Counted from the first letter of the stretch, positions 4,972 through 39,518 are shown. The stretch is 46,694 bases of DNA from Candidatus Scatosoma sp. (GCA_045532525.1 JAZSGC010000085.1:1-46694); one strand, 5' to 3'. Numbers and translations are program-made. The notes: generated by a model not told the origin, from the letters alone.

Positions 4972-6687
4972 TTAAAGCTTGGGCTTAACCAACACCGTTT
5001 TATAATCGGTATATACCACAAACCCCGCTTTGCTTTTGCTCGGTTTTTTTACAAATTTTCGCTTACAGTAATCCACGGGGATTTTATCTGCTTCCCGTCC
5101 GTCGGAGTAATACGCGCATATTTCCGCGGCTCGTAAAATAATTTCATCGCGTACCTGCCCCCCACGTACGGCAATAATTACGTGGGAAGAATGGTATTTT
5201 TGCGTGTGTAACCAAATATCGTCGGGGTCGGCTTCGCGCAGCAACCTGTCGTTTTGCAGGTTGTTCCGCCCCGCATAAATGGTAAAGCCTTCAAACGTAA
5301 ACTCGCGGAAAGGTAGGGGGGCTTCTTTTTTCTTGCCGCCCACCCGCTCTTTGGGCGCACGCAACAAGCCAAGCTCCGTCAATTCCTGTTCGATTTCCTT
5401 TAAGTCCAAAGCATTTTCGGCGTTTGTAATGGCGGAAAGAACGCTATCCGTGTATGCAATTTCCGCTTGCTCCGCTTGCAGCATCGGCGTTAAAATCTCG
5501 CTCGCGCGCTTATGTTTATTGTAAATTTTAAAATACCGCTGTGCATTTTTCGCAGGCGAAAGAGTGGTATCCAGCGCAATTTTCACCGTGCCGCCCTGCT
5601 CATCGTACCAGTTTTCTAATTCCACGCCGCGCATACCCTTTTCGATACGGTATAAATTCGCCGTCAACAGCTCGCCTTTTATGCGGTATTCTTCCGCTTT
5701 TTTCGCTTCATTTAAGCGTTCTAAGGTGTCTTGCAATTTTTTGGTTTGTTTCTTTTTTAACGCCCGCGCGGTGTTTTCCAGCTTGCGTTTTTTATCTTCA
5801 AACCCCTTTTTATTTTCCCGACGGGTGAAAAACTCGTCTTCCGCTTTGCACAGCGACGGCATCGGCTCGCCGCCGTCTACGGGAAAAGCAAAAAAATCCA
5901 CGGGCTGTCCGTTTTGCGTTTTTAAGCAGGGAACGCACGGCTCGTTTTGACAAAACTCGCCAACAAATTCCCAAAGCGGCGCACCGTACGCGGACGAAAG
6001 GGTGTTTTTCACCGAGCCTGCTTTCTTTGCCGCGCGCATAACGATTTCCCGCGCCGTAGGCAAAGCCAACCCCGAAACGTTTTCAAAAAGAAAAAAGGAA
6101 AGCCCTTCCGCGTCCGCTTCTTCTTGCCGCAGGGAAAGATAATTTTCCAGCCGTGAACGCATACCTGCCCCGTCGAAAGGGGATAATTTATCCTGCGGAA
6201 CGGGATATTCGTATCTCGCCCCCGCAAGCAAAACACGCCTAGAACTATCTTCCAGCGCCGTCGTTTTTAACGCGCCTAAAATCACTCCGTTTTCCGTTAA
6301 AATCACGTTGGAGTATTTGCCCATTAGTTCGCAATGCAGCGTGCGCTTGCTTTCGGAAAAATCGGTAGTACAATGCAAATCGATTTCGATAATGCGTTCA
6401 AAGGCGTATTGCCGCACCGTCAAAATTTCCGCGTTTTGCAGGTGCTTGCGAAGCAACATACAAAAATTCGGCGCGACGGGCGCGGGCTCTTTTTCCGTCA
6501 AAGACAAACAAACGCGTGCGTTGGACGCATTTGCACTCAAAATAAGTTTAACCGTCGATTTTTCGGTGTATATAATAAAGGTGAGCTCGTCCTTATTTAC
6601 TTGCGAAATGCGGTTTATTTTTCCGTGTACAAGCAAGGTATTCAGTTCGGTCGCCAAACGGCGAATATGAAAAGCGTCCTGCGGCAT
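4972..6687 (-). CDS. rqcH: Ribosome quality control protein RqcH (NFACT / FbpA family)
   Basis: 571-aa ORF with an NFACT-N domain, a central coiled coil and a C-terminal NFACT-R/DUF814 region ('WLHTQKYHSSHVII'). Confidence 0.9.
   Translation of the reverse strand: MPQDAFHIRRLATELNTLLVHGKINRISQVNKDELTFIIYTEKSTVKLILSANASNARVCLSLTEKEPAPVAPNFCMLLRKHLQNAEILTVRQYAFERIIEIDLHCTTDFSESKRTLHCELMGKYSNVILTENGVILGALKTTALEDSSRRVLLAGARYEYPVPQDKLSPFDGAGMRSRLENYLSLRQEEADAEGLSFFLFENVSGLALPTAREIVMRAAKKAGSVKNTLSSAYGAPLWEFVGEFCQNEPCVPCLKTQNGQPVDFFAFPVDGGEPMPSLCKAEDEFFTRRENKKGFEDKKRKLENTARALKKKQTKKLQDTLERLNEAKKAEEYRIKGELLTANLYRIEKGMRGVELENWYDEQGGTVKIALDTTLSPAKNAQRYFKIYNKHKRASEILTPMLQAEQAEIAYTDSVLSAITNAENALDLKEIEQELTELGLLRAPKERVGGKKKEAPLPFREFTFEGFTIYAGRNNLQNDRLLREADPDDIWLHTQKYHSSHVIIAVRGGQVRDEIILRAAEICAYYSDGREADKIPVDYCKRKFVKKPSKSKAGFVVYTDYKTVLVKPKL
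5143..5163 (+). repeat. Dispersed repeat copy j (inside rqcH)
   Basis: ttcatcgcgtacctgcccccc. Read by rqcH as 'GGQVRDE'. Confidence 0.7.
6154..6174 (+). repeat. Dispersed repeat copy i (inside rqcH)
   Basis: tgaacgcatacctgccccgtc. Read by rqcH as 'DGAGMRS', a different frame from copy j. Confidence 0.7.
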
Positions 6688-6855
6688 AACCTTACGTCTC
6701 CTTTCCCTAAATTATACCCTAATTTTACGAAATTGTAAATAAAAACGAGCAAAAAACGCTTTATTTTCTTCCTTAAATATGGTAAAATATAAAGCGGTAT
6801 TATCAAAAACCAAGAAAAAATAAAAATTCATATAGATTCAGGAGAATTTCAAACT

Positions 6856-8154
6856 ATGAAGTACACTACCAAAGCGGCAGAAAAAAGCACGGTAAAAATC
6901 ACCTTCAAAATCGACGGTGAAGAATGGAAAGCAGCGGTTCAAAACGCTTACCTTAAAACGAGAGGAAGATTTGCTATCAACGGCTTCCGTAAAGGCAAAG
7001 CTCCCAAATACGTTATCGAAGACGTTTACGGTAAGGGCGTATTTTACGAAGACGCGCTCAATAACCTTTTCAACGAAAATTATGGCAAGGTAATTGATAA
7101 GGAACAAAAGAAATTTACGGTCGTTGGCGATCCCGAAGTTTCCGTAGAGAAATTAGAAGAGGACAACGTTACCATCGTAGCGGTTGTTCCCGTAAAACCC
7201 GAAGTGAAAATTTCTTCCTACACGGGTATGAAAATTAAGCAATTTGCGTATACTGTAAAAGACGAAGAAATCGACGCGGAACTCAACCGCGTGCTCGATA
7301 GAAACGCTCGTAAAGTAGCGGTTACCGACCGCGCTGCACAAGACGGCGACATCGTAAACATCGACTTCGTTGGTACGGTGGACGGCGTGAAGTTCGACGG
7401 CGGTGAAGCGGAAGGCTACGATTTGACACTTGGTAGCGGTCAGTTCATTCCCGGCTTTGAAGAACAGGTCGTTGGTATGAACATCGGCGAAACGAGGGAC
7501 GTGAACGTTACCTTCCCCGAAAACTACCAGGCGGAAGCTTTGAAGGGCAAAGCGGCTGTGTTTGCCGTGAAATTGAACGGCATTCAGGCAAAGGAACTTC
7601 CCGAAGTTACCGACGAATTCATCAAGGAAGCTACGGGCAGCGAAACGCTTGACGCGTACAAGGCAAAAACGAGAGAAAAGCTTGAAAAGCAAGCGGAACG
7701 CCGTGCAAACGACGCAACCGAAAACAGCATTCTCGACGCAATCTCCGCAAACGCAGAAGTTGAAATTCCCCAAGCGATGATTGAAAGAGAAATCGACAAT
7801 CTCGTTAAGAAGTTTGAATATCAGCTTATGTATCAGGGCTTGAAGCTGCAAGACTACCTTGAATTCTTGAAAATCGACGTTTCCGAGTTTAGAAAGAACT
7901 ATGAAGAACAAGCAAAGAAGAACGTTTTGAACCAGCTTGTTATTTCTCAGCTTATTAAGGACGAAAAAATCGAAGCGACGGACGAAGAAGTAGACGCGCA
8001 AATCGCCAAGCAGGCAGCGGAAGTCAACAAGACGACGGAAGAATACAAGAAGAATATGGATCCCCGTCAATTCGACTATATCAGCAGCGATATCGTTATC
8101 ACCAAGCTTTTCGACTTCTTGAAAGCAAACAACGAAATGTACTTGGAAGACTAA
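6856..8154 (+). CDS. tig: Trigger factor
   Basis: 432-aa ORF with the ribosome-binding 'GFRKGKAP' motif, a central FKBP-type PPIase and a C-terminal chaperone domain. SD 'aggag' upstream. Confidence 0.96.
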   Translation: MKYTTKAAEKSTVKITFKIDGEEWKAAVQNAYLKTRGRFAINGFRKGKAPKYVIEDVYGKGVFYEDALNNLFNENYGKVIDKEQKKFTVVGDPEVSVEKLEEDNVTIVAVVPVKPEVKISSYTGMKIKQFAYTVKDEEIDAELNRVLDRNARKVAVTDRAAQDGDIVNIDFVGTVDGVKFDGGEAEGYDLTLGSGQFIPGFEEQVVGMNIGETRDVNVTFPENYQAEALKGKAAVFAVKLNGIQAKELPEVTDEFIKEATGSETLDAYKAKTREKLEKQAERRANDATENSILDAISANAEVEIPQAMIEREIDNLVKKFEYQLMYQGLKLQDYLEFLKIDVSEFRKNYEEQAKKNVLNQLVISQLIKDEKIEATDEEVDAQIAKQAAEVNKTTEEYKKNMDPRQFDYISSDIVITKLFDFLKANNEMYLED

Positions 8155-8207
8155 TCGCCGAAAAGTAAAACTGCTTTTATTGCGAATTTTTGCAAACCTG
8201 TTTATAC

Positions 8208-8234
8208 CGACGCGCCCGATTTTTGGGCGCGTCG
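8208..8234 (+). other. GC-rich stem-loop after tig (weak terminator or processing signal)
   Basis: cgacgcgccc / gggcgcgtcg, a 10-bp perfect stem with loop gattttt. No U-tract follows it. Confidence 0.4.
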
Positions 8235-8270
8235 CAAATTCCTAATCCAACATAAGGACGATTATTAAAA

Positions 8271-8861: not shown

Positions 8862-8880
8862 TCCTTTCGTTTGAGTGTTG

Positions 8881-8919
8881 CGCGCAAATTCCCCTTCGGG
8901 TTTTTGCGCGTTTTCTTCC
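8881..8919 (+). terminator. Intrinsic terminator/attenuator between clpP and clpX
   Basis: cgcgcaaa (8881-8888) / tttgcgcg (8903-8910) with an inner ccc/ggg pairing, followed by ttttcttcc. Confidence 0.7.
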
Positions 8920-8927
8920 AAAACCCC

Positions 8928-8957
8928 AAAACGAGTGGGGCAGGTATGCGATGAACG
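8928..8957 (-). repeat. Dispersed repeat copy a (clpP-clpX spacer, inverted orientation)
   Basis: The plus strand reads aaaacgagtggggcaggtatgcgatgaacg. Confidence 0.8.
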
Positions 8958-9022
8958 AAAGTTTTTCAAGCTTTCACCCTTTATTTTCGACGCGCATATC
9001 TATAAAAATATGGAGTTTAATT

Positions 9023-10267: not shown

Positions 10268-10286
10268 ACGGCGATTATAAATAGAA

Positions 10287-10313
10287 AACGACCCTTAAAA
10301 AGGGTCGTTTTTA
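10287..10313 (+). terminator. Intrinsic terminator after clpX
   Basis: aacgaccct / agggtcgtt stem with loop taaaa, followed by a T-run. Confidence 0.85.
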
Positions 10314-10315
10314 AT

Positions 10316-10345
10316 TTCATCGCATACCTGGGTGGGGTGTTTTTG
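10316..10345 (+). repeat. Dispersed repeat copy b (after the clpX terminator)
   Basis: ttcatcgcatacctgggtggggtgtttttg. Confidence 0.8.
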
Positions 10346-10349
10346 TTTT

Positions 10350-11009
10350 TTAGCCCATTTTGGGTGATTCGTTTTCCGTTTCCGCCGTATTTTCCGTTAC
10401 TGCCGTCGGCACGTAAATCCACTGTTCAGGACCTGTATCGCGCATTAAAATTTTCTTGTCTTTATACTTAAAAAGCAATAAGCCCGTCATATATAAATCG
10501 CCAACGCAGCCGCCGACGTGCATACCGAATAAAAAGGCAAACAGCACGTAAAGTACGGGATTAAAGAAGTAGAATACTACCGCCAGCGCCGCAAACAGCA
10601 CACCGAACACAGCAAAGGGGGCAATCAACGCAAGGAACGCCGTTTTACGGTAGGTGTATACGTCGGGAACGCCACAAAAGGCACAGCTCCAACTCAGCCC
10701 GAATTTTAACTTTTGCTTGGTCATTGCTTTATATACGACGCCGTGTACCAGCTCGTGTAAAATCATATAAGCAACAATAGAAAGCATCAGCACGACGCAA
10801 AAAAGAGCCACCCACAAAAGCTGCGACGGGCTTGCGTCGCGGAATTCACTCAAATTAATGTCCGCCGTAAAAACCACCAAAATAATTACGCCGATCAAAG
10901 GAATAAAGGAAAGTAAATTCATCACCAAGCCCACCTTTTTCGAGCGCGCGTCAATGTGAAAGGCTTCCTTATAGTTTTGCGGCAACGCCGTTTCGTAATT
11001 CTTTTTCAT
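10350..11009 (-). CDS. DUF3267-like membrane protein (putative zincin, HExxH)
   Basis: 219-aa ORF with about 5 TM helices and a 'HELVHG' motif. Confidence 0.75.
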   Translation of the reverse strand: MKKNYETALPQNYKEAFHIDARSKKVGLVMNLLSFIPLIGVIILVVFTADINLSEFRDASPSQLLWVALFCVVLMLSIVAYMILHELVHGVVYKAMTKQKLKFGLSWSCAFCGVPDVYTYRKTAFLALIAPFAVFGVLFAALAVVFYFFNPVLYVLFAFLFGMHVGGCVGDLYMTGLLLFKYKDKKILMRDTGPEQWIYVPTAVTENTAETENESPKMG

Positions 11010-12449: not shown

Positions 12450-12487
12450 AAGTAATTGATTAAAACGGCTCTTATTTTTACCGTTTG

Positions 12488-12520
12488 AAAGCGCGGCTTT
12501 TTCGCCGCGCTTTTCCTTTG
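12488..12520 (+). terminator. Intrinsic terminator
   Basis: aaagcgcggc / gccgcgcttt stem with loop tttttc, followed by a T-rich tail. Confidence 0.85.
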
Positions 12521-12567: not shown

Positions 12568-12595
12568 TTCAACGCATACCTGCCCTACGTTTTTA
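12568..12595 (+). repeat. Dispersed repeat copy c1
   Basis: ttcaacgcatacctgccctacgttttta. Confidence 0.85.
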
Positions 12596-12598: not shown

Positions 12599-12627
12599 TT
12601 CAACGCATACCTGCCTGCCACATTTTG
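12599..12627 (+). repeat. Dispersed repeat copy c2 (tandem to c1, 31-nt offset)
   Basis: ttcaacgcatacctgcctgccacattttg. Confidence 0.85.
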
Positions 12628-12666
12628 TTGTTCTATGAAAATGTAGTGAAAAATAGCCTTTCCCCC

Positions 12667-12703
12667 TTTACTTTTTTAAAAATTTATGTTATACTATAAC
12701 ATA
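12667..12703 (+). promoter_or_regulatory. holB promoter with the -10 inside a perfect 19-bp palindrome
   Basis: TTTACT (12667-12672), a 17-nt spacer, then TATACT (12690-12695). The palindrome TATGTTATA-C-TATAACATA spans 12685-12703. Confidence 0.55.
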
Positions 12704-12754: not shown

Positions 12755-13723
12755 ATGCAGGCTCTTTTACAAGAAACGCAAGCCTATAAAATCGTGCAAA
12801 ATGAAAAACGGGAAAACCGTCTTTCACACGCCTATTTACTGCTGATGGACGACGGCAAAAATTTGCGTTCCGTGTTAAAAACCTTTGCCAAGCTCCTACT
12901 CGTTGGCGACGCACAGGACGAAGAAGCCCAGCGTATTTCTAAGCTTGTAGAAACGGAAAGCTTTTCCGATTGTCTGTTTTTCCCTACCGACGGTAAAAAA
13001 CTCACCGTTGAAGACGCCAACGCTATTCACGAAGAATGTACGTTAAGCCCTGTGGAGGGAGAGAAAAAGCTGTTCGTTTTAGGCGACTTTGCCGAAGCCA
13101 ACACCCAAACTCAAAACAAGCTGTTAAAGCTGCTGGAAGAACCGCCCAAGCACGTGCTTTTTTTACTGGGCGCAACCTCGGCTTTCCCCGTTTTAACTAC
13201 CGTTCTTTCCCGTACCAAAAAGCTGGAAATCCCCGCCTTTGATATACAAAAGGTAACGGAATGTCTTGCCCGCATTTACGGAAATAAATACGACGAAGAA
13301 ACGCTGCGTTTTTGTGCGGCGGCTTCGGAAGGCAACGTGGGCAACGCCCAAAATCTTTTGGAGGGCGGCCATTACAAAATGCTGACGGACAACGCGTTTT
13401 CGCTGCTGCTTTCCCCCCTTTACAAGCTCCCAACCGCGGTGAAAGCGATAGCCGAAACGAAATACCAAAGGGAACTGCTTTCTACCCTGCGCCTTATTTT
13501 TCGCGACGCGTTGCTTTTAAAATCGCAACCAAACGCCGAAAAATTTCTTTTGCTTCGTTCCGAAAAAGAAAAATTGCAGGAAGTGGCTACCGTGTACGCG
13601 TTGAACGCGCTCTTGTATGCGCAAAACGCGCTTTCGGACGCGGAAAAACAAGTTAAATTCAACGCAGTATTCCCGCAATGCATTGAAATTTGCATTGCAA
13701 AAATTCGTAAAGAAAATAAGTAA
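12755..13723 (+). CDS. holB: DNA polymerase III subunit delta'
   Basis: 'SHAYLL' and 'NKLLKLLEEPP' clamp-loader motifs. I chose the start at ATG 12755 (SD 'aagggga') rather than TTG 12725. Confidence 0.88.
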   Translation: MQALLQETQAYKIVQNEKRENRLSHAYLLLMDDGKNLRSVLKTFAKLLLVGDAQDEEAQRISKLVETESFSDCLFFPTDGKKLTVEDANAIHEECTLSPVEGEKKLFVLGDFAEANTQTQNKLLKLLEEPPKHVLFLLGATSAFPVLTTVLSRTKKLEIPAFDIQKVTECLARIYGNKYDEETLRFCAAASEGNVGNAQNLLEGGHYKMLTDNAFSLLLSPLYKLPTAVKAIAETKYQRELLSTLRLIFRDALLLKSQPNAEKFLLLRSEKEKLQEVATVYALNALLYAQNALSDAEKQVKFNAVFPQCIEICIAKIRKENK

Positions 13724-14630: not shown

Positions 14631-14678
14631 CGCCGTTTTTTGAAAAAAATAAGAAAACTTTCAAAGGAGATTTTGTTT

Positions 14679-15782
14679 ATGGAATCTACTACGGAAAATA
14701 CTCCCGTTGCAGCAACGCCTGTAACTCCCGCTCAGCCTGTTCAACCCACAACGCCGGTAGCTCCTGCGCAACCCGCAACGCCGATAGCTTCTGCGCAACC
14801 TGCACAACCCGCAACGCCGATAGCTCCTGCGCAACCTACGCAACCCGCAACGCCGGTAGCTCCTGCTCAGCCTGCGCAACCTGCGCCCGTGGCAGCACAA
14901 GCACCTACGGCTACGCCTGCACCTGTGACGGTAACGGAATCCGCTCCGCAAGAAGAATCCGCGGAAGGGGAAGAGGAAGCGCCCCCGAAAATTATTTTAA
15001 ACACGCAACGAATTTTAGACGACTGGAAAGACGAAAAAGGCAAAGTACTTGTTTTCTTTATGAATCTTATTAATGTCTTTGCTATTTTAGGCTCTATCGG
15101 TTTGTTCTTTACGGGTTTCCTGTTCTTAATCGGTATTTCCACCGCCATCGGATTTTTGGAGAGAATCCGTGCGATCCCGAATATCGAAACAATTTCTATC
15201 GTATTGCTGATTGCGGCTACCTGCGTGGCGATTTGGTGCGATTTCGTACATAAACTCACCCCTTACTTTAAGGCGTTTAGTATTGCAAAATGGTTAAAGG
15301 ACAACAGTATCGACCCCAAAGAAGTAATGAAAATTTACTTACAAACCAAGCGGGAAAACGAGCTGACGAAATATCAGCACGGAAAGGGCGGTATCCGCGT
15401 AGAACAATCGGATTTATCCCAAGCGGCTTTTATCCTTTTAAACGACGAGCATAAATCCATCTACAAAAAAGAGCTTGTATGGACGCTTTTGTTCTGGGTA
15501 TTTCTCTCGGCAATCAAAGTACTTTTCGTGTACTGTTTAAACGAAATCGTCAGCGGTGTTTGCTTACAAATCGCTTCAATGACGAAAGGAAAATTCGATT
15601 TTCTCAGTCTTCTTACCCTTTTGCGCGATCCCTTGTTCCTTGGTTCTATCGGCGGTTGGATTGTACTTGGTATCACGCAAGCCATCGTCCGTGCTTCCAT
15701 TGCGCACGTGAGAAACAAAAATCAGCAAAAGTGGGTAAAAGCGTTTATGAAGGACGATATGCCGTCTAAGGAATATTATTAA
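14679..15782 (+). CDS. Hypothetical membrane protein with an N-terminal Pro/Ala/Gln repeat region
   Basis: Start at ATG 14679 with SD 'aaggag'. About 95 aa of (A/T)TP(V/I)APAQPAQP repeats, then an acidic linker, then at least 5 TM helices. Confidence 0.75.
   Translation: MESTTENTPVAATPVTPAQPVQPTTPVAPAQPATPIASAQPAQPATPIAPAQPTQPATPVAPAQPAQPAPVAAQAPTATPAPVTVTESAPQEESAEGEEEAPPKIILNTQRILDDWKDEKGKVLVFFMNLINVFAILGSIGLFFTGFLFLIGISTAIGFLERIRAIPNIETISIVLLIAATCVAIWCDFVHKLTPYFKAFSIAKWLKDNSIDPKEVMKIYLQTKRENELTKYQHGKGGIRVEQSDLSQAAFILLNDEHKSIYKKELVWTLLFWVFLSAIKVLFVYCLNEIVSGVCLQIASMTKGKFDFLSLLTLLRDPLFLGSIGGWIVLGITQAIVRASIAHVRNKNQQKWVKAFMKDDMPSKEYY
14748..14882 (+). repeat. In-frame tandem repeat (36-nt unit x3 plus a degenerate 27-nt unit)
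   Basis: Units start at 14775, 14811 and 14847 (gcaacgccgRtagctYctgc...). They encode ATP(I/V)A(P/S)AQP(A/T)QP. Confidence 0.85.
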
Positions 15783-15813
15783 AACAACCTACCCGTGTAC
15801 GGGTTGAAATGTA

Positions 15814-15850
15814 AAAACTCCGCATTTTTCAGCGGAGTTTTTTATTTTTT
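15814..15850. terminator. Bidirectional intrinsic terminator (membrane protein / rsmG)
   Basis: aaaactccgc / gcggagtttt stem with an 8-nt loop and T-runs on both strands. Confidence 0.85.
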
Positions 15851-15882: not shown

Positions 15883-16578
15883 TTACAGCGGATTTTTTCT
15901 TTCCTTTCCTTGTCCCCTGGGATATTTTGCAGGGGTGTTTTTGTTCTTTTCCACGATAGCGAGTACTCTTTCGCCATATTCTTCGGGCAACGTGTAGGCG
16001 TGGACGCCGACAAGCTTTCCGCCTAAAATTTTATACGCGGTTTGCGCTTCTTCAATTTCCGTTACGTCGCCGCTTTTATAAGCGATAAATTTACCGCCGA
16101 CTTTAACAAACGGCATACAGTATTCGCAAAGGGTATTCATTCTCGCCACGGCGCGCGCCGTCACAAAATCAAACTTTTCGCGAAGCTCCGCATTTTTTGC
16201 GCCGTCTTCCGCGCGGATATTGTGGATACGCACGTTGGATAATCCTAATTTATCCACAACGACTTTTAAAAACTCACACTTTTTCCCCACGCTTTCTAAT
16301 AAATCGAAAGATAAATCGCCGCGCAAAATCTTTAATACGATGGACGGAAACCCTGCCCCCGAACCGATTTCCGCAACCTTGGCGTTTTGCGTAAACAAAT
16401 CCATTCCCGCCGCGCTGTCTAAAAAATGCTTATAATACACGTCCTTTTCTTCCAAAATGGTAGTGAGATTATAACGCTGATTATACTCTAAAAGCAGAGC
16501 GCGAAAGGCGTCGAGCTTCTCTTTCTTCTCGCCTAATATCTCCGTTTGATAAATTTCGTTGATGTTCCGTATCTTCAT
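15883..16578 (-). CDS. rsmG: 16S rRNA (guanine527-N7)-methyltransferase RsmG
   Basis: SAM-binding motif 'GSGAGFPS'. I placed the start at ATG 16578 because a -10 element lies inside the longer track ORF. Confidence 0.9.
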   Translation of the reverse strand: MKIRNINEIYQTEILGEKKEKLDAFRALLLEYNQRYNLTTILEEKDVYYKHFLDSAAGMDLFTQNAKVAEIGSGAGFPSIVLKILRGDLSFDLLESVGKKCEFLKVVVDKLGLSNVRIHNIRAEDGAKNAELREKFDFVTARAVARMNTLCEYCMPFVKVGGKFIAYKSGDVTEIEEAQTAYKILGGKLVGVHAYTLPEEYGERVLAIVEKNKNTPAKYPRGQGKERKNPL

Positions 16579-16587
16579 AGCCTGCTT

Positions 16588-16616
16588 ATTATACCACACG
16601 CAAAAAAAAATAGCAA
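16588..16616 (-). promoter_or_regulatory. rsmG promoter giving a near-leaderless mRNA
   Basis: On the minus strand: TTGCTA (16611-16616), a 17-nt spacer, then TGgTATAAT (-10 at 16588-16593). Only 9 nt separate the -10 from ATG 16578, and there is no SD. Confidence 0.55.
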
Positions 16617-16645
16617 CCTATTTACGATAAAGTTTTCCACTCGAA

Positions 16646-16950
16646 AGTGGATAAGGTTGTCCACAATGTGTAAAACCCTGTTGATAAATGGGTATATAAA
16701 ATATTTTTTCACTTTTTTAGTTTTCCTATTTTCTGTTTTTTAGAAAGCGATAGAAAAATCTCTCAACAAATCCACAAATGCTCCACAAAAATATCCACCT
16801 AAAAAACAGGGGTTGTCCACGGCTTGCACCTTTCCGTTTTTTGCTTATATTTCCATACTTTTCCGTGTGTGAAAGGATGGGGTTGTCCACATTTCCACCC
16901 TGCCTACTACTATTACTTCTATTTTTATTTATTAAAATAAATTCTTCGTA
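16646..16950. promoter_or_regulatory. oriC-like module: DnaA boxes, GC spacer, DnaA-trio-like tract and AT-rich unwinding element
   Basis: Boxes AGTGGATAA 16646-54, TTGTCCACA 16657-65, TTGTCCACG 16813-21 and TTGTCCACA 16883-91, with ATTTCCACC 16891-99 abutting the last one. Next comes CCCTGCC, then CTA CTA CTA TTA CTT CTA (16904-16921), then a 23-nt pure A/T run (16921-16943). Confidence 0.7.
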
Positions 16951-17014
16951 TAAAAGCCAAATCGAATGAAGAAAAAAGTTTGAGGAAATTTGCAAAAAAA
17001 GTGGCAGTGTTGCC

Positions 17015-17042
17015 TTGACAAATTTTCCCTGTATGGTATAAT
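17015..17042 (+). promoter_or_regulatory. Promoter of the DUF1273 gene
   Basis: TTGACA (17015-17020), a 16-nt spacer, then TGgTATAAT (-10 at 17037-17042). Confidence 0.65.
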
Positions 17043-17072
17043 AAATTCGACCGTTTTTTTAAGGGAGCGACG

Positions 17073-17567
17073 ATGGAACAAATAGGGATTTTCACAACTG
17101 AATCCGTACCCCCGAAAAGCTGTGCTTTTACAGGGCATAGAACGCTTTACGAAGGGTTTTCGCCGCGGAAATTAAAGAAAGAAATCAAACGGCTGATTTT
17201 GCAGGGCGTTACTACCTTTTATAACGGTATGGCGATGGGGTTTGATTTGCTCGCCGCGGAAAAGACGTTGGAATTAAAAAAGAGATTTCCGCAAATTAAG
17301 CTGATACTTTGTATCCCCTGCTATCACCAAGAAAAAAACTTTTCCGCTGCGGACAAGCGCCGTTACGTAAAAATCTATCAAAAAGCGGATGAAAAGATAC
17401 TGCTTTCCGAAAGCTATTATCGGGGCTGTATGCAAGCGCGCAATCGGTATATGGCGGACCGCGCGGACGCGCTGATCGCCTACTGTATCAAAGACGAAGG
17501 CGGCGCAGCGTATACGGTGAAGTATTTTCAAAAACACCGCCCAGAAAAAGAAATAATTTTTCTTTAA
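17073..17567 (+). CDS. DUF1273 / YpsA-like SLOG-family protein
   Basis: 164-aa ORF with SD 'aagggag'. Carries 'FTGHR' and 'GMAMGFDLLAAE' motifs typical of the YpsA/DUF1273 family. Confidence 0.8.
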   Translation: MEQIGIFTTESVPPKSCAFTGHRTLYEGFSPRKLKKEIKRLILQGVTTFYNGMAMGFDLLAAEKTLELKKRFPQIKLILCIPCYHQEKNFSAADKRRYVKIYQKADEKILLSESYYRGCMQARNRYMADRADALIAYCIKDEGGAAYTVKYFQKHRPEKEIIFL

Positions 17568-17574
17568 CAAAGGG

Positions 17575-17583
17575 TGTGGATAA
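17575..17583 (-). promoter_or_regulatory. Perfect DnaA box upstream of dnaN
   Basis: TGTGGATAA, the reverse complement of TTATCCACA. Confidence 0.6.
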
Positions 17584-19956: not shown

Positions 19957-20037
19957 AAGCGGAGCGTTCCGTTTTTGATAAAAGCAAAGCCGAAAAATGA
20001 TAAAAGCGAAGCAGTTTTCTTCGCAAAAAGGTATATA

Positions 20038-23870: not shown

Positions 23871-24512
23871 TTACGCCTTTTTAAGGCAAGAATTTTTATG
23901 GCTTCGCTCCCAAAGCAGGGCGGCGATGGCGTCGGAGATGATTTCCGACATCGTATATACCAAATTTAAGCGGGTGGTGTTTAAAAGTCCGTAGTTTGCC
24001 AAGGATTTTTCGGCGACGATACCCATAATTGAAATATCCCCCAGCGCGCCCAGCTTCTTATTTGCGCCTGCGCCCGGCATTAGCGGCGCGTCGGTAACGC
24101 GGATAAGTCCCACGTCCCCCTTTTCCCCCACCGCCGCGTCGATGGCGAGAATTTGGCTGTCCGCGTGCGTTTCTTTTAAAAAGGTTTGCATATATTTAAT
24201 CTCTTTGGCGGTAACCGGTGCGGCGAGCGTGCCGTAGATATACGCGCCCACGCCCTGCGTTTTATATTGCAGCATCGAGCCGGTTATCGGGCCTAAGCTA
24301 TCCCCGATGGCAAGGTCGCTGCCCACGCAAACCACCACGGGCGGCTTGTGGGCAAATTCCGTTTTCAAAAGGGCGGAAACTGCCCGTGAACTCGTACCTG
24401 CCCCCGTCATTTTATTTTTTTTCTTATTTAAATTTTCCGTTAAAAGCCGATCGGTTGCCATTGTTGCGCCGTCTGTGGCAAGCTTATTATAAATATGAAA
24501 GGAATATTCCAT
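23871..24512 (-). CDS. yyaC: YyaC-like putative sporulation protease (GPR/HybD-like fold family)
   Basis: 'VVVCVGSDLAIGDSLGP' matches the YyaC signature 'IGTDRSTGDSLGP'. SD 'aaggag' lies before ATG 24512. Confidence 0.8.
   Translation of the reverse strand: MEYSFHIYNKLATDGATMATDRLLTENLNKKKNKMTGAGTSSRAVSALLKTEFAHKPPVVVCVGSDLAIGDSLGPITGSMLQYKTQGVGAYIYGTLAAPVTAKEIKYMQTFLKETHADSQILAIDAAVGEKGDVGLIRVTDAPLMPGAGANKKLGALGDISIMGIVAEKSLANYGLLNTTRLNLVYTMSEIISDAIAALLWERSHKNSCLKKA
24387..24413 (+). repeat. Dispersed repeat copy k (inside yyaC)
   Basis: tgaactcgtacctgcccccgtcatttt. Read by yyaC as 'MTGAGTSS'. Confidence 0.6.
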
Positions 24513-25640: not shown

Positions 25641-26136
25641 TGTGTATAACTGTGGATAATTTTCCGCGAAGTCAAGAAAAGAACGTTTGTTTGTGGATAA
25701 AACGAACATTTTGGCGTTATTTTACGATAAATATTTACATTTTTTCCCATAAATTTTTATTGGAGAAAAAGTTATCCACGAAAAATTGAGATGAAGCGTA
25801 TATCTAACATTTCGGGAAATGCGCAGGTTATCCACAGAAAAATCCCGTGATTTCGCGGTAAAATCGCGCAAAAGCGTTTGTTATTGCAAATGCATTTTAT
25901 CTATTCGGGTGAAGTTATACACAATTTACTGACTGTATGGGTGGACAACCTGTACTTATCCACATTTATACACAAATAAGGGCTTATGGCTGTTTTTTAT
26001 TATGCGGCTTAGGTTATTTTTCGACAGTTTTCAACAAGCGCAGACAAATTGCGACAAGGACAATTTTTCCGCATTGTGGATAAATTTTTAGAGATGGACA
26101 ACCGACCATACCCCTACGCGCATTTATTGTGGATAT
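25641..26136. promoter_or_regulatory. Dense DnaA-box cluster in non-coding DNA between convergent genes
   Basis: Five perfect TTATCCACA/TGTGGATAA boxes at 25651-59, 25692-700, 25828-36, 25956-64 and 26075-83. Five one-mismatch boxes at 25641-49, 25772-80, 25915-23, 25966-74 and 26128-36. Also GGTTGTCCAC-type sites at 25941-50 and 26094-26103, and an AT-rich stretch at 25720-25770. Confidence 0.8.
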
Positions 26137-27459: not shown

Positions 27460-28669
27460 TTTTCTTCTCCGTTGCTTTTGTAGTAGGGGTGTTATTTGTT
27501 TGTTTTTCGGAATTCATCGCATACCTGCCCCCTTCATTTTGTTTTTTGGACTGCATTTTTTCGCGGTTTGGCAACAACAGACAAAAAAGCGGAATTAAGT
27601 TGGCAAACAGCCAAAAAACGGGCGGGAGCTTGTGGCTGATGACACGGTAAAAGGCGTCGTAGTGTCGGTTAAAGAAAAGTATGGCGATGAGCAGGGAAAA
27701 ATTGAGCAGCGCGGAAATAAAGGTTTTGCGTTCGGTGGGGAAAAATGCCGAAATTGCGTGTGTAGCGTACTGTAAGGGTAAGCAAAGAAAAAATAGCAGT
27801 ACGACGGATAAAAAGTAGACGAAGACCAAGTCGATTCGCCCCACCACGGAAAGGGCGGGGAAATACTGACCGATTTTGGTAAATGCGTAATGCTCGCGCT
27901 CCGCAAGCGAAGCGTACAGCGAATAAAACACAGCCAAAAACAAAAGGGTGAGAAGCGCGCCCCCACCGTAGCCCGCCACGATTTTTGCGCCGTCGTTTTT
28001 CTTATAACGGAGATTCGCAATTAAAGGAAAGATCAAAATTGCGTCGGAAAAATGCGGCGTTGTACGGCTGAATGCGGTGAAGCTACGAGAAAGCTTTGTG
28101 CCGAAGAATGGGAGCAGGTTGGAAAAATCCGTTTCGGGTACAGCCATAAACAACAGCGCGATAAAGGGAAGCAAGAAAAGAAAAAGGCATAAATCAGCAC
28201 ACCTGCCGATGGACTTCACCCCCTTTGTGCAAACAAACGCGCTGAACAAAAAGAAGACGCCGAAAGAAAACAGCGTGGGCGCGGTGTCGAAATAGGTGGC
28301 GTAGACAAATTTTTCCGCATCGAGTAAGGGCAAAGCCGCGGAGAACAGGAAATATACCGCATATAGCGCGTACACGACAAAAATACCCTTTCCGAGCGCG
28401 GCTTTTAAGCGGTCTATCAAAGGTGTCTCCGATTTAGAAGCGGCATAAAGAAGCCCCAAGAGCACCAGCGTTTGTACAAGGAAATGTAAAATGGCAGGAA
28501 AAAGCAAGTCTCCCCCTGCGTGCTTGGATAAAATGGACGGCACTTCTAAAAGCTTAGCCATCGGTAGGATGAACGCCGCGGCAAAGGCTGCTTGTCTTGC
28601 GTTTACGCCGTCCTTGTTTTTTAAAAGGCTTGGTGCTGGGGCGGTGGGTAAAAAATCGGGTTTGGTCAT
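27452..28669 (-). CDS. Spore germination protein, GerAB/GerKB-type permease subunit
   Basis: 405-aa ORF with about 10 TM helices and SD 'aggag'. It overlaps the gerXC start by 8 nt. Confidence 0.88.
   Translation of the reverse strand: MTKPDFLPTAPAPSLLKNKDGVNARQAAFAAAFILPMAKLLEVPSILSKHAGGDLLFPAILHFLVQTLVLLGLLYAASKSETPLIDRLKAALGKGIFVVYALYAVYFLFSAALPLLDAEKFVYATYFDTAPTLFSFGVFFLFSAFVCTKGVKSIGRCADLCLFLFLLPFIALLFMAVPETDFSNLLPFFGTKLSRSFTAFSRTTPHFSDAILIFPLIANLRYKKNDGAKIVAGYGGGALLTLLFLAVFYSLYASLAEREHYAFTKIGQYFPALSVVGRIDLVFVYFLSVVLLFFLCLPLQYATHAISAFFPTERKTFISALLNFSLLIAILFFNRHYDAFYRVISHKLPPVFWLFANLIPLFCLLLPNREKMQSKKQNEGGRYAMNSEKQTNNTPTTKATEKKNV
27513..27541 (+). repeat. Dispersed repeat copy d (in the 3' tail of gerXB)
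   Basis: ttcatcgcatacctgcccccttcattttg. Read as 'EGGRYAMN'. Confidence 0.85.
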
Positions 28670-28705: not shown

Positions 28706-28735
28706 TTCAACGCATACCTGGTATGCGCATTTTTC
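28706..28735 (+). repeat. Dispersed repeat copy e (gerXA-gerXB spacer, palindromic variant)
   Basis: ttcaacgcatacctggtatgcgcattttt. It contains the hairpin cgcatacc/ggtatgcg followed by a T-run on the plus strand. Confidence 0.85.
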
Positions 28736-28749: not shown

Positions 28750-30309
28750 TTACGCATTGTTGGCGGACTTATTTTCTTGGTTTTCCGTTTGCGTGCGCAA
28801 GCGAGTTTTATTTTTTGAGTTAAGAAAAGCAGGGCGTTTTTTTAAGGTAAACAGATTGTATTTCAAGAAGGAATCCCGTAAATCTTTGGGAATAAGCGGG
28901 GAAAACGGAGCAAGTAAGGGTGTGCCGAAGGAATCGGCGGAGATAAGATAGTACAACAAAAAGGCAATCAGCAGCACAATACCAAACGGGCCGATACTGC
29001 CCGCGACAAGCAAAAACAGCCAACGCAAAATACTGCCCGTTTCCACAAAATTCGGCACGGTATATAAGCAAATTCCCGAAAAAGCGACGATAATGATGGC
29101 GGGCGTGGAAAGAAAACCTGCGGAAACCGCCGTTTCGCCAAGCACCAGCGCACCGACGACGGAAAGGGACATTCCCACGTATTTAGGCATACGGATGCTC
29201 GCTTCCTTTAAAATTTCCAAAAGTAACAGCACCACGAACATTTCCAAGCTTGGCGAAAGTGGTAAGCCGCGGATACTGCTGGCAATGGTCAGCATTAAAT
29301 CCAACGGCAAAAGCTGCATTTTAAAAAGCTGCGTGGACACGTAAAACGCGGGCAGTAAAATGGCGACGATAAGCGCGATACAACGCAGGAAACGAACGAC
29401 GGTTGCCATAAAGGGCGACACGAAATAGTCTTCGCTGCTTTGCAGGTCTTCCGTTAAGATAAAAGGCAAGGTGAGCGCGATGGGCGAGCCGTCGACGAGA
29501 AGCCCCACTCTGCCTTCGCAAATTTTTGCGGCGAAAACGTCGGGCTTTTCCGTTGTGCCAACGGTGTGAAACACGGAATGCTTGCGCGGAGAAAGAAGCG
29601 CGGCAAGATAGGACGAATCCGCCACGTTGTCAATTTGGATTTTTTGTAGTTTTTCCGAAAGCTGATTTTTAAGCTTATCGTCCGCAATACCGTTCAGCCA
29701 GCAAAGAGTGACGGCGGTATCCGAACGCTTACCAACACGCAGGGTTTCAAAACGTAAATCGGCAGATTTTAAGCGTTTGCGAACGAGCGCCATATTCGTT
29801 TTTACGTCTTCGATAAAACCTTCGCGCGGGCCTTTGACGGTGACGTCGGTGGGCGGCTCAATAACGGCGCGGTTGGGTAAAAGCTTTGCGCCGATAATAA
29901 ACCCAACGGAAACGCCGTCGACGATCAGCAGGCTGTTTCCGTCTAAAATCTCCGATTTCGCGTCGGAAAACTCGGTAACCGTCTTTAATTCGGGGAAAAG
30001 CAAGGTGCTTTTAATTTGCTCCACTACCCCATCTTGTTCGGATTGTTTATCGTTGGATTTTTGCGCGGTTTTTTCGTTCAATGCGTACCTGCCCACGCCA
30101 TTTTCCGTTTTTAACGATAAACGGATACGGGAGAGCGGGCGTGCGACAAGGTCGCCGAGTAGCTGTTTATTCACTACGCCGTCGGCATACACGATAAAGC
30201 AGGGCGTTCCGTTTTCCGTTTCAAAGGTATAGTACAGAATATCTTCGGACGGAAGGAGAGTTTTTAGCTCCGTTTGATTTTTTTGTAAGCTTGCGGATAA
30301 AGTGTTCAC
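28750..30309 (-). CDS. Spore germination protein, GerAA/GerKA-type subunit
   Basis: 519-aa ORF with the GerA family core ('PREGFIEDVKTNMALVRKRL', C-terminal TM bundle). GTG start with no obvious SD. Confidence 0.88.
   Translation of the reverse strand: MNTLSASLQKNQTELKTLLPSEDILYYTFETENGTPCFIVYADGVVNKQLLGDLVARPLSRIRLSLKTENGVGRYALNEKTAQKSNDKQSEQDGVVEQIKSTLLFPELKTVTEFSDAKSEILDGNSLLIVDGVSVGFIIGAKLLPNRAVIEPPTDVTVKGPREGFIEDVKTNMALVRKRLKSADLRFETLRVGKRSDTAVTLCWLNGIADDKLKNQLSEKLQKIQIDNVADSSYLAALLSPRKHSVFHTVGTTEKPDVFAAKICEGRVGLLVDGSPIALTLPFILTEDLQSSEDYFVSPFMATVVRFLRCIALIVAILLPAFYVSTQLFKMQLLPLDLMLTIASSIRGLPLSPSLEMFVVLLLLEILKEASIRMPKYVGMSLSVVGALVLGETAVSAGFLSTPAIIIVAFSGICLYTVPNFVETGSILRWLFLLVAGSIGPFGIVLLIAFLLYYLISADSFGTPLLAPFSPLIPKDLRDSFLKYNLFTLKKRPAFLNSKNKTRLRTQTENQENKSANNA
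30077..30104 (+). repeat. Dispersed repeat copy f (inside gerXA)
   Basis: ttcaatgcgtacctgcccacgccatttt. Read as 'GVGRYALN'. Confidence 0.75.
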
Positions 30310-32003: not shown

Positions 32004-32143
32004 AAAAAGAAAACAAGGTGCGGCGGCTTCCGCGCGGCGGTGAGAATATGCGCGAAAAACTAAATGAACGCGTACACGGGTGCTGCATTTTTGTGTTTCA
32101 ATGGGAAAATATTCGGGTATACTTATAATAAAGGAGTATTAAA

Positions 32144-32916: not shown

Positions 32917-32945
32917 TTCAATCCATACCTGGTGGCTTGATTTTT
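32917..32945 (+). repeat. Dispersed repeat copy g (after the Zn-peptidase gene)
   Basis: ttcaatccatacctggtggcttgattttt. It can fold imperfectly (tcaa-tcca / tgg-ttga) ahead of a T-run. Confidence 0.7.
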
Positions 32946-34278: not shown

Positions 34279-34323
34279 TCCACTCGTCAAAATAAAAAAA
34301 TTATTATAAAGAGGTGCAACATT

Positions 34324-35643
34324 ATGGCAGAAACCGGTGGAACTCACATCATCAAATGGGATGAGGGTTGGGGCGACATCAACGAAGTGCTCATTTACAA
34401 GCACGCCGTAGAAGACTTCAAAACCCATTCCGTACTTATCGTTAACCCTTCCCAGGTTGCAATCGTTTACGATTCTCAAACTCGTAAGCCGCACGTTTTC
34501 AGAGAAGGCAGACACGAAAAAGCACTTGAGCAACTTAACCAGAACCACATCTTGCGTATGGGGCTCGGCGACAAGATTTTGTACAAAGAAAACACGTCTT
34601 ATCACATCGACGTTTACTTTGTAAATCTCGTTTACTTAAAGATGAAATTCGGTACGCCCGATCCCATTCAGCTTTACGATCCGATGGAAGACATTAACTT
34701 CGATTTGAAAGCTGCTGCCGGTTACGAATTGCAAATTGCTGAACCCGCTATGTTTAAAGAATTGCTCAGCGGTACGAAGCATTTGTTCACCAAGACGGAT
34801 TTAAAGACGTTCATCAACGATAAAATTATCGAATTGGTTACGACGGAAACGGCTTCCTTGTTCAAGGATCCCAATAGCGGCTTCAACATCTATCAAATGA
34901 GCGCGCAGGCTTCCGTGCTTTCCAAGGCGGTGGAACAGGCTATCGTTCCCTACTTGCAGGAACGCGGTATCGCAATCAAGAACTTCTCGTTTGTAAACCT
35001 TGAAGCAAGCGGCGAACAATACAAAGAAGCTTTGAAGGCAAACGTAGCAATGAGAAACGAAGCAAGAAGATTGCAGAAGCTCGGCATTACGTACGCACAA
35101 GAAAAGCAGATCGAAGTAATGAAGACGGCGGCTGGCAACGAATCCGCTGGTATGGCTCCGTTTATGGGCGCTGGTATGGGTATCGGTATGGGCGTCGGTA
35201 TGGGCGGCGCATTCGGCGCAGGTATGGCGAATATGGCGAACCAAGCGTTTGCTCCCCAAGGTCAACCCCAGCAACCCTACGGTTATCCCCAACAGCCCTA
35301 TGGCTATCCCCCTCAGGGTTATCCTCAGCAGCCTTACGGCTATCCCCCTCAGGGTCAAGCGCCCCAAGGCTATCCTCAACAGCCCTACGGCTATCCCCCT
35401 CAGGGTCAAGCGCCCCAAGGCTATCCTCAACAGCCTTACGGCTATCCCCCTCAGGGTCAAGCGCCTCAAGGCTATCCTCAACAGCCCTATGGCTATCCCC
35501 CTCAGGGCGCACCTGCACCCGCTCCCGAAGGCGCACCCGCTCCTGCTCCTGCACCCGCTCCTGCGGCTGCGGTATGCCCGAAGTGCGGTCAGCCCGTTCA
35601 ACCCGGCGCAACGGTTTGCGCTTGCGGTCAGCAACTTGTATAA
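34324..35643 (+). CDS. SPFH/band-7 protein of the COG4260 (YdjI-like) type with a G/M-rich segment, a P/Q/Y-rich repeat linker and a C-terminal zinc ribbon
   Basis: 439-aa ORF with SD 'gaggtg'. '...VYFVN...KFGTPDPIQLYDP...' matches the YdjI-type SPFH core. Also 'GMGIGMGVGMGGAFGAGMANMAN', (YPQQPYGYPPQGQAPQG)n and 'CPKCGQP...CACGQQ'. Confidence 0.8.
   Translation: MAETGGTHIIKWDEGWGDINEVLIYKHAVEDFKTHSVLIVNPSQVAIVYDSQTRKPHVFREGRHEKALEQLNQNHILRMGLGDKILYKENTSYHIDVYFVNLVYLKMKFGTPDPIQLYDPMEDINFDLKAAAGYELQIAEPAMFKELLSGTKHLFTKTDLKTFINDKIIELVTTETASLFKDPNSGFNIYQMSAQASVLSKAVEQAIVPYLQERGIAIKNFSFVNLEASGEQYKEALKANVAMRNEARRLQKLGITYAQEKQIEVMKTAAGNESAGMAPFMGAGMGIGMGVGMGGAFGAGMANMANQAFAPQGQPQQPYGYPQQPYGYPPQGYPQQPYGYPPQGQAPQGYPQQPYGYPPQGQAPQGYPQQPYGYPPQGQAPQGYPQQPYGYPPQGAPAPAPEGAPAPAPAPAPAAAVCPKCGQPVQPGATVCACGQQLV
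35320..35508 (+). repeat. Near-identical 51-nt in-frame tandem repeat (3 full units plus partial units)
   Basis: Units at 35320-35370, 35371-35421 and 35422-35472, with a partial unit at 35473-35508. Degenerate copies lie upstream from about 35266. Units differ only by a few synonymous changes. Confidence 0.9.
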
Positions 35644-35663
35644 TGTAAAGGAGAATATAAATT

Positions 35664-36446: not shown

Positions 36447-36474
36447 GATATAGCTGAGAAAACGGATAAGTGCA

Positions 36475-36505
36475 GCTCTGCCGTGGCGTTAGGTTGCGGC
36501 AGAGC
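36475..36505 (+). other. Intercistronic GC-rich hairpin
   Basis: gctctgccg (36475-83) / cggcagagc (36497-505), a 9-bp perfect stem with a 13-nt loop. No U-tract follows. Confidence 0.55.
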
Positions 36506-36546
36506 GCAACATAATATTATAAATAAAAAATAAGAGGTGTCAATTT

Positions 36547-37347: not shown

Positions 37348-37366
37348 ATAAAGGAGGCAACAAAAA

Positions 37367-39166: not shown

Positions 39167-39393
39167 TGGCTGATATGGATTTGGGATTGGACTTAGGTTT
39201 GTCCTTAGACGATATTGGTGTTGACGCAGCGGAAATGGAAAAGCTCGCACCCGAAACGAAAGTAGAACTCGCTGAAAACCTTGACGGTTTCGCAAACGGG
39301 TTCAGCGCTGACTGGGATTTGGACGTTCCTGCCGAAGTTATGCAAGAAATCGCGGCAAAGAAAGAAAGAAGAAAAGCAGCAAAGAAAAGATAA
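39166..39393 (+). CDS. Small acidic protein with a basic C-terminal tail
   Basis: 75-aa ORF. Its start overlaps the upstream stop (TAATG), and SD 'agaggagg' lies upstream. 'MADMDLGLDLGLSLDD...KKERRKAAKKR'. Confidence 0.7.
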   Translation: MADMDLGLDLGLSLDDIGVDAAEMEKLAPETKVELAENLDGFANGFSADWDLDVPAEVMQEIAAKKERRKAAKKR

Positions 39394-39415
39394 TTTCAGA
39401 AATTAAATTATCCAT

Positions 39416-39454
39416 AAAAAGTCCCGTCGCGGTATTCCGCGGCGGGATTTTTTA
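39416..39454 (+). terminator. Intrinsic terminator of the SPFH operon
   Basis: tcccgtcgcgg / ccgcggcggga stem with one G-T pair and loop tatt, followed by tttttt. Confidence 0.85.
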
Positions 39455-39495
39455 CGTGGTGAAAGTGTGCATAGCGCGGAGCGTAATTTCATAAA

Positions 39496-39518
39496 GGACA
39501 TACCAGATACGCGTTGAA
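39496..39518 (-). repeat. Dispersed repeat copy h (between the SPFH-operon and gap terminators, inverted orientation)
   Basis: The plus strand reads ggacataccagatacgcgttgaa. The reverse complement is ttcaacgcgtatctggtatgtcc. Confidence 0.6.

Follow-up and report, generated by a model that had tools for sequence, protein, structure and literature searches.

A clade-restricted and very abundant DNA word in Candidatus Scatosoma and related gut Clostridia resembles uptake signal sequences

Introduction

A single asymmetric word of some 30 nt recurs along a contig of Candidatus Scatosoma sp., inside genes as well as between them, and the question is what kind of element this is and how it came to occupy coding sequence. 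The contig (GCA_045532525.1, JAZSGC010000085.1:1-46694) was analysed over its entire 46.7 kb, hereafter the window. An earlier note on this DNA had described a dispersed repeat family and offered several interpretations: a polar architectural or uptake-type signal, a miniature mobile element, or the binding site of an abundant DNA- or RNA-binding protein. We find that the family is real and clade-wide, and that the note, although only partly confirmed, described it largely correctly; the motif, ~30–45 bp long, is a very abundant DNA word specific to one clade. The evidence favours an uptake-type signal or the site of a DNA-binding protein, whereas the polar signal and the mobile element are not supported. 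Most likely, judging by the comparisons made below, a DNA-binding machinery with sequence specificity recognises the word by preference, and among known systems the word most resembles the uptake signal sequences (USS) of Haemophilus and the DNA uptake sequences (DUS) of Neisseria. A literature search for the core sequence returned only primers and oligonucleotides, and the family is apparently undescribed so far.

A recurrent DNA word in the window

A 32-nt position-weight matrix, built from 130 clade copies and applied at a threshold of 12 with a Markov null, detects 16 copies in the window where 0.28 are expected; similarly, TTCAWCGCATACCTGSCCC with up to three mismatches gives nine matches against an expectation of 0.04. 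The enrichment over a Markov expectation that the earlier note had proposed as a check is therefore borne out. The matrix recovers all 12 copies that the note had ranked as good and adds four (13578, 15781, 32064 and 42796), and none of four weaker candidates (28193, 30329, 31081 and 42448) reaches the threshold. Eleven of the 16 copies lie on the plus strand and seven are in coding DNA, including five of the original 12, as had been stated. The copies are as follows (coordinates, strand, context, matrix score).

5143..5170, plus strand: in rqcH, a minus-strand gene (4972-6687) whose sense strand carries the complement, which encodes GGQVRDE; score 33.2
6153..6180, plus strand: inside rqcH, GTGAAC variant, encodes DGAGMRS; score 17.8
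8928..8955, minus strand: clpP-clpX gap, 68 nt upstream of the true clpX ATG (9023); score 38.4
10316..10343, plus strand: convergent gap between the clpX terminator (10285-10311) and the stop of the minus-strand gene 10350-11009; score 30.2
12568..12595, plus strand: first member of a tandem pair (spacing 31 nt) that follows the terminator 12487-12514 and precedes the holB promoter; score 33.6
12599..12626, plus strand: second member of the tandem pair, upstream of the holB promoter; score 37.3
13578..13605, minus strand: inside holB (plus-strand gene), complement on the sense strand, encodes TVYALN; score 22.3
15781..15808, minus strand: abuts the stop of the plus-strand gene 14925-15782, just before the terminator 15813-15842; score 21.0
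24386..24413, plus strand: GTGAAC variant in the 5' part of the minus-strand DUF1256 gene; score 28.5
27513..27540, plus strand: C-terminal tail of the spore germination permease gene (gerB, minus strand), upstream of gerC; score 39.6
28706..28733, plus strand: gerA-gerB gap, GGTATGC sub-type, 7-bp hairpin then T-run; score 34.8
30077..30104, plus strand: 5' region of the gerA reading frame (minus strand); score 31.8
32064..32091, plus strand: weaker copy in the gap of two plus-strand genes, same sense; score 15.6
32917..32944, plus strand: gap from the Zn-peptidase gene to the GDPD gene, in the sense shared by these two plus-strand genes; score 23.4
39491..39518, minus strand: convergent gap before the gap (GAPDH) gene; score 24.6
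42796..42823, minus strand: near the 5' end (nt 55) of the gene for a 602-aa protein (plus strand), encodes GIGVYALN; score 22.5

The GTGAAC variant at 6153 avoids an in-frame TGA. At 8951-9022 the longest clpX reading frame begins at an ATG within the motif, and alignment with relatives moves the start to 9023; start codons within motif copies may lead gene callers to predict reading frames that are too long.

Distribution among relatives

With TTCAWCGCATACCTG as an exact query against one genome per species, at least 119 loci matched. Among the matches listed, about half belong to Candidatus Scatosoma or to other metagenome-assembled genomes of gut Clostridia/Clostridiales (chicken, deer, sheep and human); the others are single matches in unrelated phyla, with flanks that read as coding by eye, and are taken as chance. 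Because conservation of the 15-mer core in loci seeded by the motif amounts to ascertainment, our claims of conservation rest on loci fetched through their proteins and not through the motif (motif-blind loci), which avoids this bias. Three of these (L200, L202 and L203) carry RqcH homologues at 78–89% identity and a fourth (L298) carries a GerC homologue at 69%. They contain 10 copies in 21.4 kb, 12 in 21.7 kb, 5 in 15.5 kb and 6 in 21.3 kb, respectively. Together with the window this gives 49 copies in 126.6 kb, or 1 per 2.6 kb, against the null of 0.28 per 46.7 kb, with about half of the copies in coding DNA. Extrapolation of this density yields several hundred copies per genome.

The density falls away outside the clade. 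A ClpX-based metagenome scan returned only a sister clade and distant Firmicutes, which were used as negative controls, and the sister clade (ClpX 74–82% and RqcH 45–50% identical) has no copy in 59 kb. More distant relatives (GerC 56–60% identity) have about one weak copy per 21 kb. A search of related genomes with a matrix, as the earlier note had suggested, thus places the family throughout one clade and not in its sister. On viral contigs there are 93 loci with one exact match each and none with several, which we estimate to be about the chance number. Within the clade the word has dialects: all five L203 copies read CTC for the consensus CGC, and those of L200 mostly read CGCGTACATG.

Two of the distant loci, L299 and L300, are syntenic with the window, with GerC 56–60% identical, and are nearly free of the motif; both keep a weak copy in the DUF1256 gene at the same place, which could be an ancestral seed or simply reflect protein conservation.

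Entry into genes without change of length

Codon alignments at three coding sites compare the motif-bearing genes with motif-free orthologues, which have equal length and different residues.

rqcH site 1 (copy 6153): with motif DGAGMRSR; without motif DEEGLRER (L203)
rqcH site 2 (copy 5143): with motif GGQVRDE; without motif GREASEE (L202)
holB site (copy 13578): with motif TVYALN; without motif AAHTLS (L200) and EKYQAG (L085)

Since the length is unchanged while the residues are altered, the word was written in by substitution and not inserted, and it changed the protein in doing so. Likewise, genomes with and without a copy in the clpP-clpX gap do not differ in the length of that gap. The proposal of a miniature mobile element therefore fails for the coding copies, which arose without length change in all three alignments, and logos of the motif copies show no conserved sequence beyond ~45 nt.

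Once present, the word is kept at the DNA level. At rqcH site 1 the window, L200 and L202 agree at 27 of 27 nt, third positions of all 9 codons included, whereas gene-wide third-position identity in rqcH is only 0.51–0.64; synonymous positions inside the motif are frozen. The rqcH site 2 is kept in L200 and L203, the L202 gene reading the motif-free residues at the same length. Copies between genes have likewise persisted at orthologous places, in surroundings that have themselves diverged. Four genomes (window, L200, L202 and L203) retain the tandem pair that precedes the conserved holB promoter, and three of these four retain the clpP-clpX copy (window and L200, with two copies in L202 and none in L203). 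In L298 there are orthologues of the copies at 27513 (at equal distance from the start) and 28706, copies at the intergenic positions matching 32064 and 32917, which flank the Zn-peptidase gene, and a copy at the DUF1256-gene position of 24386, which is weakly occupied in L299 and L300. Turnover of copies and drift of dialects are seen among relatives as well.

Downstream of the tandem pair, at 12640-12700 and in the orthologous regions of L200, L202 and L203, lies a strongly conserved promoter-like block, CCCCCTTTAC-N-TTTTTTAA...TGTTATACT; in L203 it precedes a methyltransferase gene inserted ahead of holB. A small RNA carrying the tandem pair was considered and rejected, there being no terminator after the pair and no convincing promoter before it.

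Orientation with respect to genes and the replication origin

The earlier note held that the copies share one orientation regardless of nearby genes, which is wrong for those in coding DNA. In the window, the purine-rich reverse complement is on the sense strand in seven of seven coding copies and the orientation flips with the gene strand (for example, 24386 is a plus-strand copy in a minus-strand gene and 42796 a minus-strand copy in a plus-strand gene). The same holds for 24 of 25 coding copies in the motif-blind loci (24:1), although these sites are not independent because many are orthologous. In a larger clade sample the coding bias is 2–2.7:1, and a codon-usage simulation over 36 Mb of clade-like coding sequence gives 2.2–2.7:1 for near-matches; the bias is therefore largely what ordinary constraints of coding and purine loading would produce. 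Opposite-sense copies do occur in real genes, namely an open reading frame (ORF) of L049, which we take from its sequence to be TatD-like, the queT gene of L298, and genes in L008 and L085. These copies refute an absolute exclusion from the sense strand, as an antisense-terminator role had suggested. Between genes, both orientations occur and are conserved.

The window most likely spans the replication origin, because it contains two clusters of DnaA boxes together with the minimum of its cumulative GC skew (16–18 kb). It has 32 DnaA boxes against 7 expected. Seven form a cluster at 16221-17583 (16.2–17.6 kb) around rsmG, ypsA and dnaN, and 11, of which five are perfect, a cluster at 25641-26136 (25.6–26.1 kb) in a 660-nt gene-free gap from a cvpA-like gene to gerC. 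No dnaA gene adjoins dnaN in the window. The clusters are probably oriC, and possibly a bipartite one. Motif orientation does not flip at 17 kb (5 plus and 3 minus to the left, 6 plus and 2 minus to the right) or at the 25.9-kb cluster (6 plus and 3 minus versus 5 plus and 2 minus). This pattern fits a DNA-level feature that works either way round; it speaks against a replichore-polar signal and weakens an RNA-level role.

Structure of the motif and of its pairs

In a logo built from the 49 motif-blind copies, the core occupies positions 0 to 14 (15 bp) and reads TTCAWCGCRTACMTG. It is followed at positions 15 to 22 (8 nt) by either a C-run (CCCCC) or a G-rich stretch (GGTGGGG, GTATGC), then by a T-tract at +24 to +27 and an A/T tract at +31 to +35, with a further A/T-rich tract at -9 to -6. 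The tracts at -9 to -6 and +31 to +35 are independent observations, because they lie outside the span of the matrix. Both sub-types recognised by the earlier note, CCTGCCCC and CCTGG..., are real. Its 7-codon mini-ORF on the complementary strand (MKGAGMR) is not a feature of the family, because the base that completes the ATG is not conserved: the CAT supplying it depends on motif position 23, which is A in 15 of 67 copies in one set and in 23 of 49 in the motif-blind set.

No significant secondary structure is predicted for single copies (z = -1.6 to +1.35), and no Rfam family matches the window at gathering score. The copy at 28706 does form the hairpin followed by a T-run that had been noted; a maintained hairpin in the G sub-type as a whole was rejected, since pair counts reveal neither maintained pairing nor covariation. 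In contrast to single copies, overlapping inverted pairs, GGGGCAGGTATGCG-TTCAA-CGCATACCTGCCCC, are perfect palindromes with 14-bp arms at seven loci, and one folded example reaches -35.6 kcal/mol (z = -9.8). These pairs are intergenic, mostly at gene ends, and by their sequence are terminator-like hairpins. Tail-to-tail pairs and direct tandems (31–43 nt) are also present, and many copies directly adjoin a stop codon or lie in the interval from a stop codon to a canonical terminator.

Several other identities were considered and set aside. A CRISPR (clustered regularly interspaced short palindromic repeats) array does not fit copies dispersed at 0.85–8.6 kb with tandems of only two copies (31–43 nt); in excluding CRISPR, together with REP (repetitive extragenic palindrome), Chi and KOPS (FtsK-orienting polar sequence) elements, the earlier note was correct. 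Promoter readings, made by eye in both orientations for sigma-70, sigma-54, sigma-H, extracytoplasmic-function and sporulation sigma factors, founder on misfitting spacing and hexamers and on the lack of downstream conservation. An altered Shine-Dalgarno sequence was rejected because ordinary GGAG sites precede the genes of the window. An intrinsic terminator is not a trait of the family, as a G+C-rich hairpin with a U-tract occurs only in the palindromic pairs and some G sub-type copies.

Gene content and other features of the window

The window is a piece of the chromosome of a spore-forming member of the Clostridia, with ~45% G+C. It carries lon, an engB-like GTPase gene, rqcH, tig, clpP, clpX, the L21/L27 genes, holB, ricT and rsmG, followed by dnaN, yidC, jag, the gerA-gerB-gerC operon, gap, fba and the L13/S9 genes. 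A megablast of 25 kb found no near match among phage records, and a phage origin was ruled out on this ground and on the chromosomal gene set (lon, rqcH, tig, clpP, clpX, dnaN, yidC and gerABC).

Two tandem-repeat tracts unrelated to the motif were observed. At 35320-35507 (also 35163-35570) an in-frame 51-nt repeat of 3.7 copies, 95% identical, encodes the Pro/Gln/Tyr/Gly-rich tail of an SPFH/Band-7 protein (34324-35643). At 14742-14881, 27- and 36-nt repeats of 2–3 copies, 90% identical, lie at the 5' end of the reading frame 14640-15782, which has no Pfam match and whose true start may be 14925. The YidC-like reading frame 19975-22110 encodes 711 aa, of which YidC family models match the N-terminal part only (best stretches within residues 45–174); the L298 and L300 proteins have 566 and 465 aa, which suggests a variable extension.

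Discussion

Our results describe a word that shares much with the uptake sequences of naturally transformable bacteria. In H. influenzae, the USS consists of a 9-bp core with two flanking T-tracts, and 1302 of 2000 sites are in genes (PMC3458573); known uptake sequences are biased in orientation when inside genes, and those of Pasteurellaceae favour gene termini (PMC2346458). As in the Haemophilus/Pasteurellaceae USS, the motif has a non-palindromic core followed by two short T-rich tracts in a unit of ~30 nt, several hundred copies per genome (extrapolated here), about half or more of them in genes, and a per-base enrichment between genes. The two further share an orientation bias in genes, of a strength that here differs between samples, a bias towards gene ends, and a consensus that is common to related species in variant forms. 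Unlike the USS, the motif has a 15-bp core of unrelated sequence, T/A tracts that are 7–8 nt apart and not one helical turn, and a host in a clade of spore-forming Clostridia as opposed to Gram-negative bacteria.

The Neisseria DUS offers a second set of parallels. Intergenic inverted pairs of the DUS are frequent, can form hairpins and have been proposed as terminators, and gene callers sometimes begin reading frames at the ATG in a DUS (PMC2346458); drift of the consensus among Neisseriaceae lineages has been described as dialects (PMC3630211). The present motif likewise has hairpin-forming intergenic inverted pairs, single copies in 3' regions and genes, a consensus that drifts across lineages, and reading frames called from an ATG within it. 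The DUS differs in being 10–12 nt long and in having no T-tracts. It is read by the minor pilin ComP. Resemblance to other repeated words is more limited. REP elements and their mosaic assemblies (bacterial interspersed mosaic elements, BIME), which are associated with RAYT (REP-associated tyrosine transposase), also comprise dispersed units of 30–40 nt that occur as singlets, tandem pairs and inverted doublets in intergenic gaps, but REPs are imperfect palindromes, strictly extragenic and spread as units, whereas the motif is mostly non-palindromic, half in genes and, in coding DNA, made by substitution. The cyanobacterial HIP1 (GCGATCGC), an 8-bp highly iterated palindrome, is like the motif a very abundant word of coding and non-coding DNA generated by substitution; the motif, however, is much longer, asymmetric and flanked by tracts. 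Chi, KOPS and SRS (SpoIIIE recognition sequence) are similarly over-represented chromosomal words, but they have 5–8 nt and switch strand at the origin and terminus, and the motif shows no such switch across the origin region.

Taken together, the USS-like copy number, dialects, gene-end enrichment, origin by substitution, T-tracts and inverted pairs lead us to rank first the possibility that the motif is the recognition word of a DNA uptake machinery, spread by uptake-biased recombination, to which we would give a probability of roughly 0.38; they place a binding protein of another kind second. Of the interpretations in the earlier note, that of an uptake-type signal or abundant-protein binding site survives and is strengthened by the clade-wide spread, the density, the presence in coding DNA, the frozen synonymous sites, the T-tracts and the inverted pairs. 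We infer from this likeness to USS and DUS that uptake machinery may be the reader of the word. Tentatively, and with somewhat lower expectation, the ~30-bp word would represent the first DNA uptake signal sequence outside Proteobacteria and hence sequence-selective natural transformation in gut Clostridia (Candidatus Scatosoma and relatives). In that event, a receptor in a Gram-positive-type competence apparatus would read the word, and molecular drive by uptake would have spread it both within genes and between them. Fragments bearing the word would be preferentially taken up and recombined, and the word would therefore accumulate wherever the genome tolerates it, such as gene ends, variable protein segments, and inverted pairs that could double as terminators.

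ComEC (PF03772) is encoded directly upstream of holA in two clade loci, L005 (3969-5399) and L112 (1209-2879), with DUF4131 in L112; no beta-lactamase domain was detected in the short ComEC of either, and in both the gene contains a motif copy. A DNA-import channel is present in the clade, which is weak evidence for uptake.

A number of observations weigh against a role in uptake. ComEC is widespread in bacteria with no known transformation, and a weak regular-expression test for pilin, ComEA and PilB signatures found none in ~0.5 Mb of clade DNA. The model Gram-positive transformers B. subtilis and S. pneumoniae are regarded as indiscriminate in the DNA that they import. No DUS or USS has a core of such length, the two T/A tracts of the motif, ~7–8 nt apart, are not helically phased, and the conserved direct tandem pairs (31–43 nt) would equally fit cooperative binding by another type of protein. 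The 24:1 coding bias in the motif-blind loci exceeds the codon-usage prediction, with the reservation that many of those sites are orthologous. The host clade is uncultured, so that a role in uptake is argued from sequence. In the literature searched, moreover, uptake sequences are known only in two proteobacterial families, Neisseriaceae and Pasteurellaceae.

Alternatively, the motif may be bound by an abundant protein unrelated to uptake, acting in nucleoid or chromosome organisation, in packaging of the spore chromosome, or as a global regulator or roadblock, with sites predicted to be kept by selection for binding. We regard this as possible but rather unlikely. It would explain the DNA-level conservation, the occurrence of both orientations between genes and the restriction to one clade; the tandem pairs at 31–32 and 42–43 nt, which are kept upstream of the holB promoter and in the clpP-clpX gap, correspond to ~3 and ~4 helical turns and so suggest cooperative binding on one face of the helix, and the overlapping inverted pairs would suit a dimer. 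However, regulator sites are normally degenerate and promoter-proximal, and we know of no nucleoid or partition protein with ~800 near-perfect 15-mer sites per genome, half of them coding. A function in mRNA appears improbable. The purine-rich complement, AAAANG-N3-GGGGCAGGUAUGCGWUGAA, could in principle be a cassette for translation initiation or coupling, with a Shine-Dalgarno-like GGGG, an AUG-CGN-UGA and a restart at the overlapping A/UUG, or else a binding or processing site of an RNA-binding protein. Such a role would account for the 24 of 25 motif-blind coding copies whose sense strand bears the complement, for copies that precede gerB and gerC, lie upstream of clpX and sit in the 5' part of the gerA frame, for the in-frame motif NTG in six of eight copies near gene 5' ends, and for an ATG directly after TTGAA in 8 of ~55 clade copies. 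The overall coding ratio of 2–2.7:1 is nevertheless that expected from codon usage, opposite-sense copies exist in the real genes of L049, L008, L085 and L298 named above, the mini-ORF ATG is not conserved and the G-rich sub-type has no Shine-Dalgarno-like stretch. The RNA-binding version of the earlier interpretation is further weakened by single copies that are unfolded and without an Rfam match, and by conserved intergenic copies that are of opposite sense or lie after a terminator and before a promoter, in DNA that should not be transcribed on either strand.

Still less probably, the copies would be transcription terminators or 3'-end elements with the reading TTCA...CCCC...TTTT. The full palindromes and the GGTATGC sub-type do give a hairpin followed by a T-run, and the many copies at stop codons or before canonical terminators would be in place, but most copies are unfolded and have no hairpin partner, pairing in the G sub-type is not maintained, and half of the copies are inside genes, including some in terminator sense in real genes. 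That the word is a miniature mobile element (for example, a REP/RAYT-type repeat, a miniature inverted-repeat transposable element or the end of an insertion sequence) has only a very slight chance. The dispersal of the family, its head-to-tail 31-nt tandems and its REPIN-like palindromic doublets recall such elements; the reading is largely refuted by the origin of coding copies through substitution, by a coding half that contrasts with extragenic REPs, by the lack of a conserved flank, target duplication or longer unit, and by the unchanged clpP-clpX gap and stably orthologous positions. A chromosome signal with replichore polarity, comparable to KOPS, SRS or Chi, is equally remote. The excess of plus-strand copies in the window (11 of 16) had pointed that way, but orientation tracks the strand of the gene for coding copies and varies for intergenic ones, with no reversal across the two DnaA-box clusters or the GC-skew minimum, and known polar signals have only 5–8 nt.

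If the motif is indeed a USS-like word of abundant, uncultured gut Clostridia, it would imply self-preferring gene exchange in the gut microbiome and provide a route to a new kind of DNA receptor. Donor DNA carrying the word would then be a handle for transforming members of the clade, and the word could also serve in binning and tracking their DNA. Should its reader prove not to be uptake machinery, a 15-mer has still been imposed on coding sequence, with amino acids changed, and this would then point to an unrecognised, abundant sequence-specific DNA-binding system.

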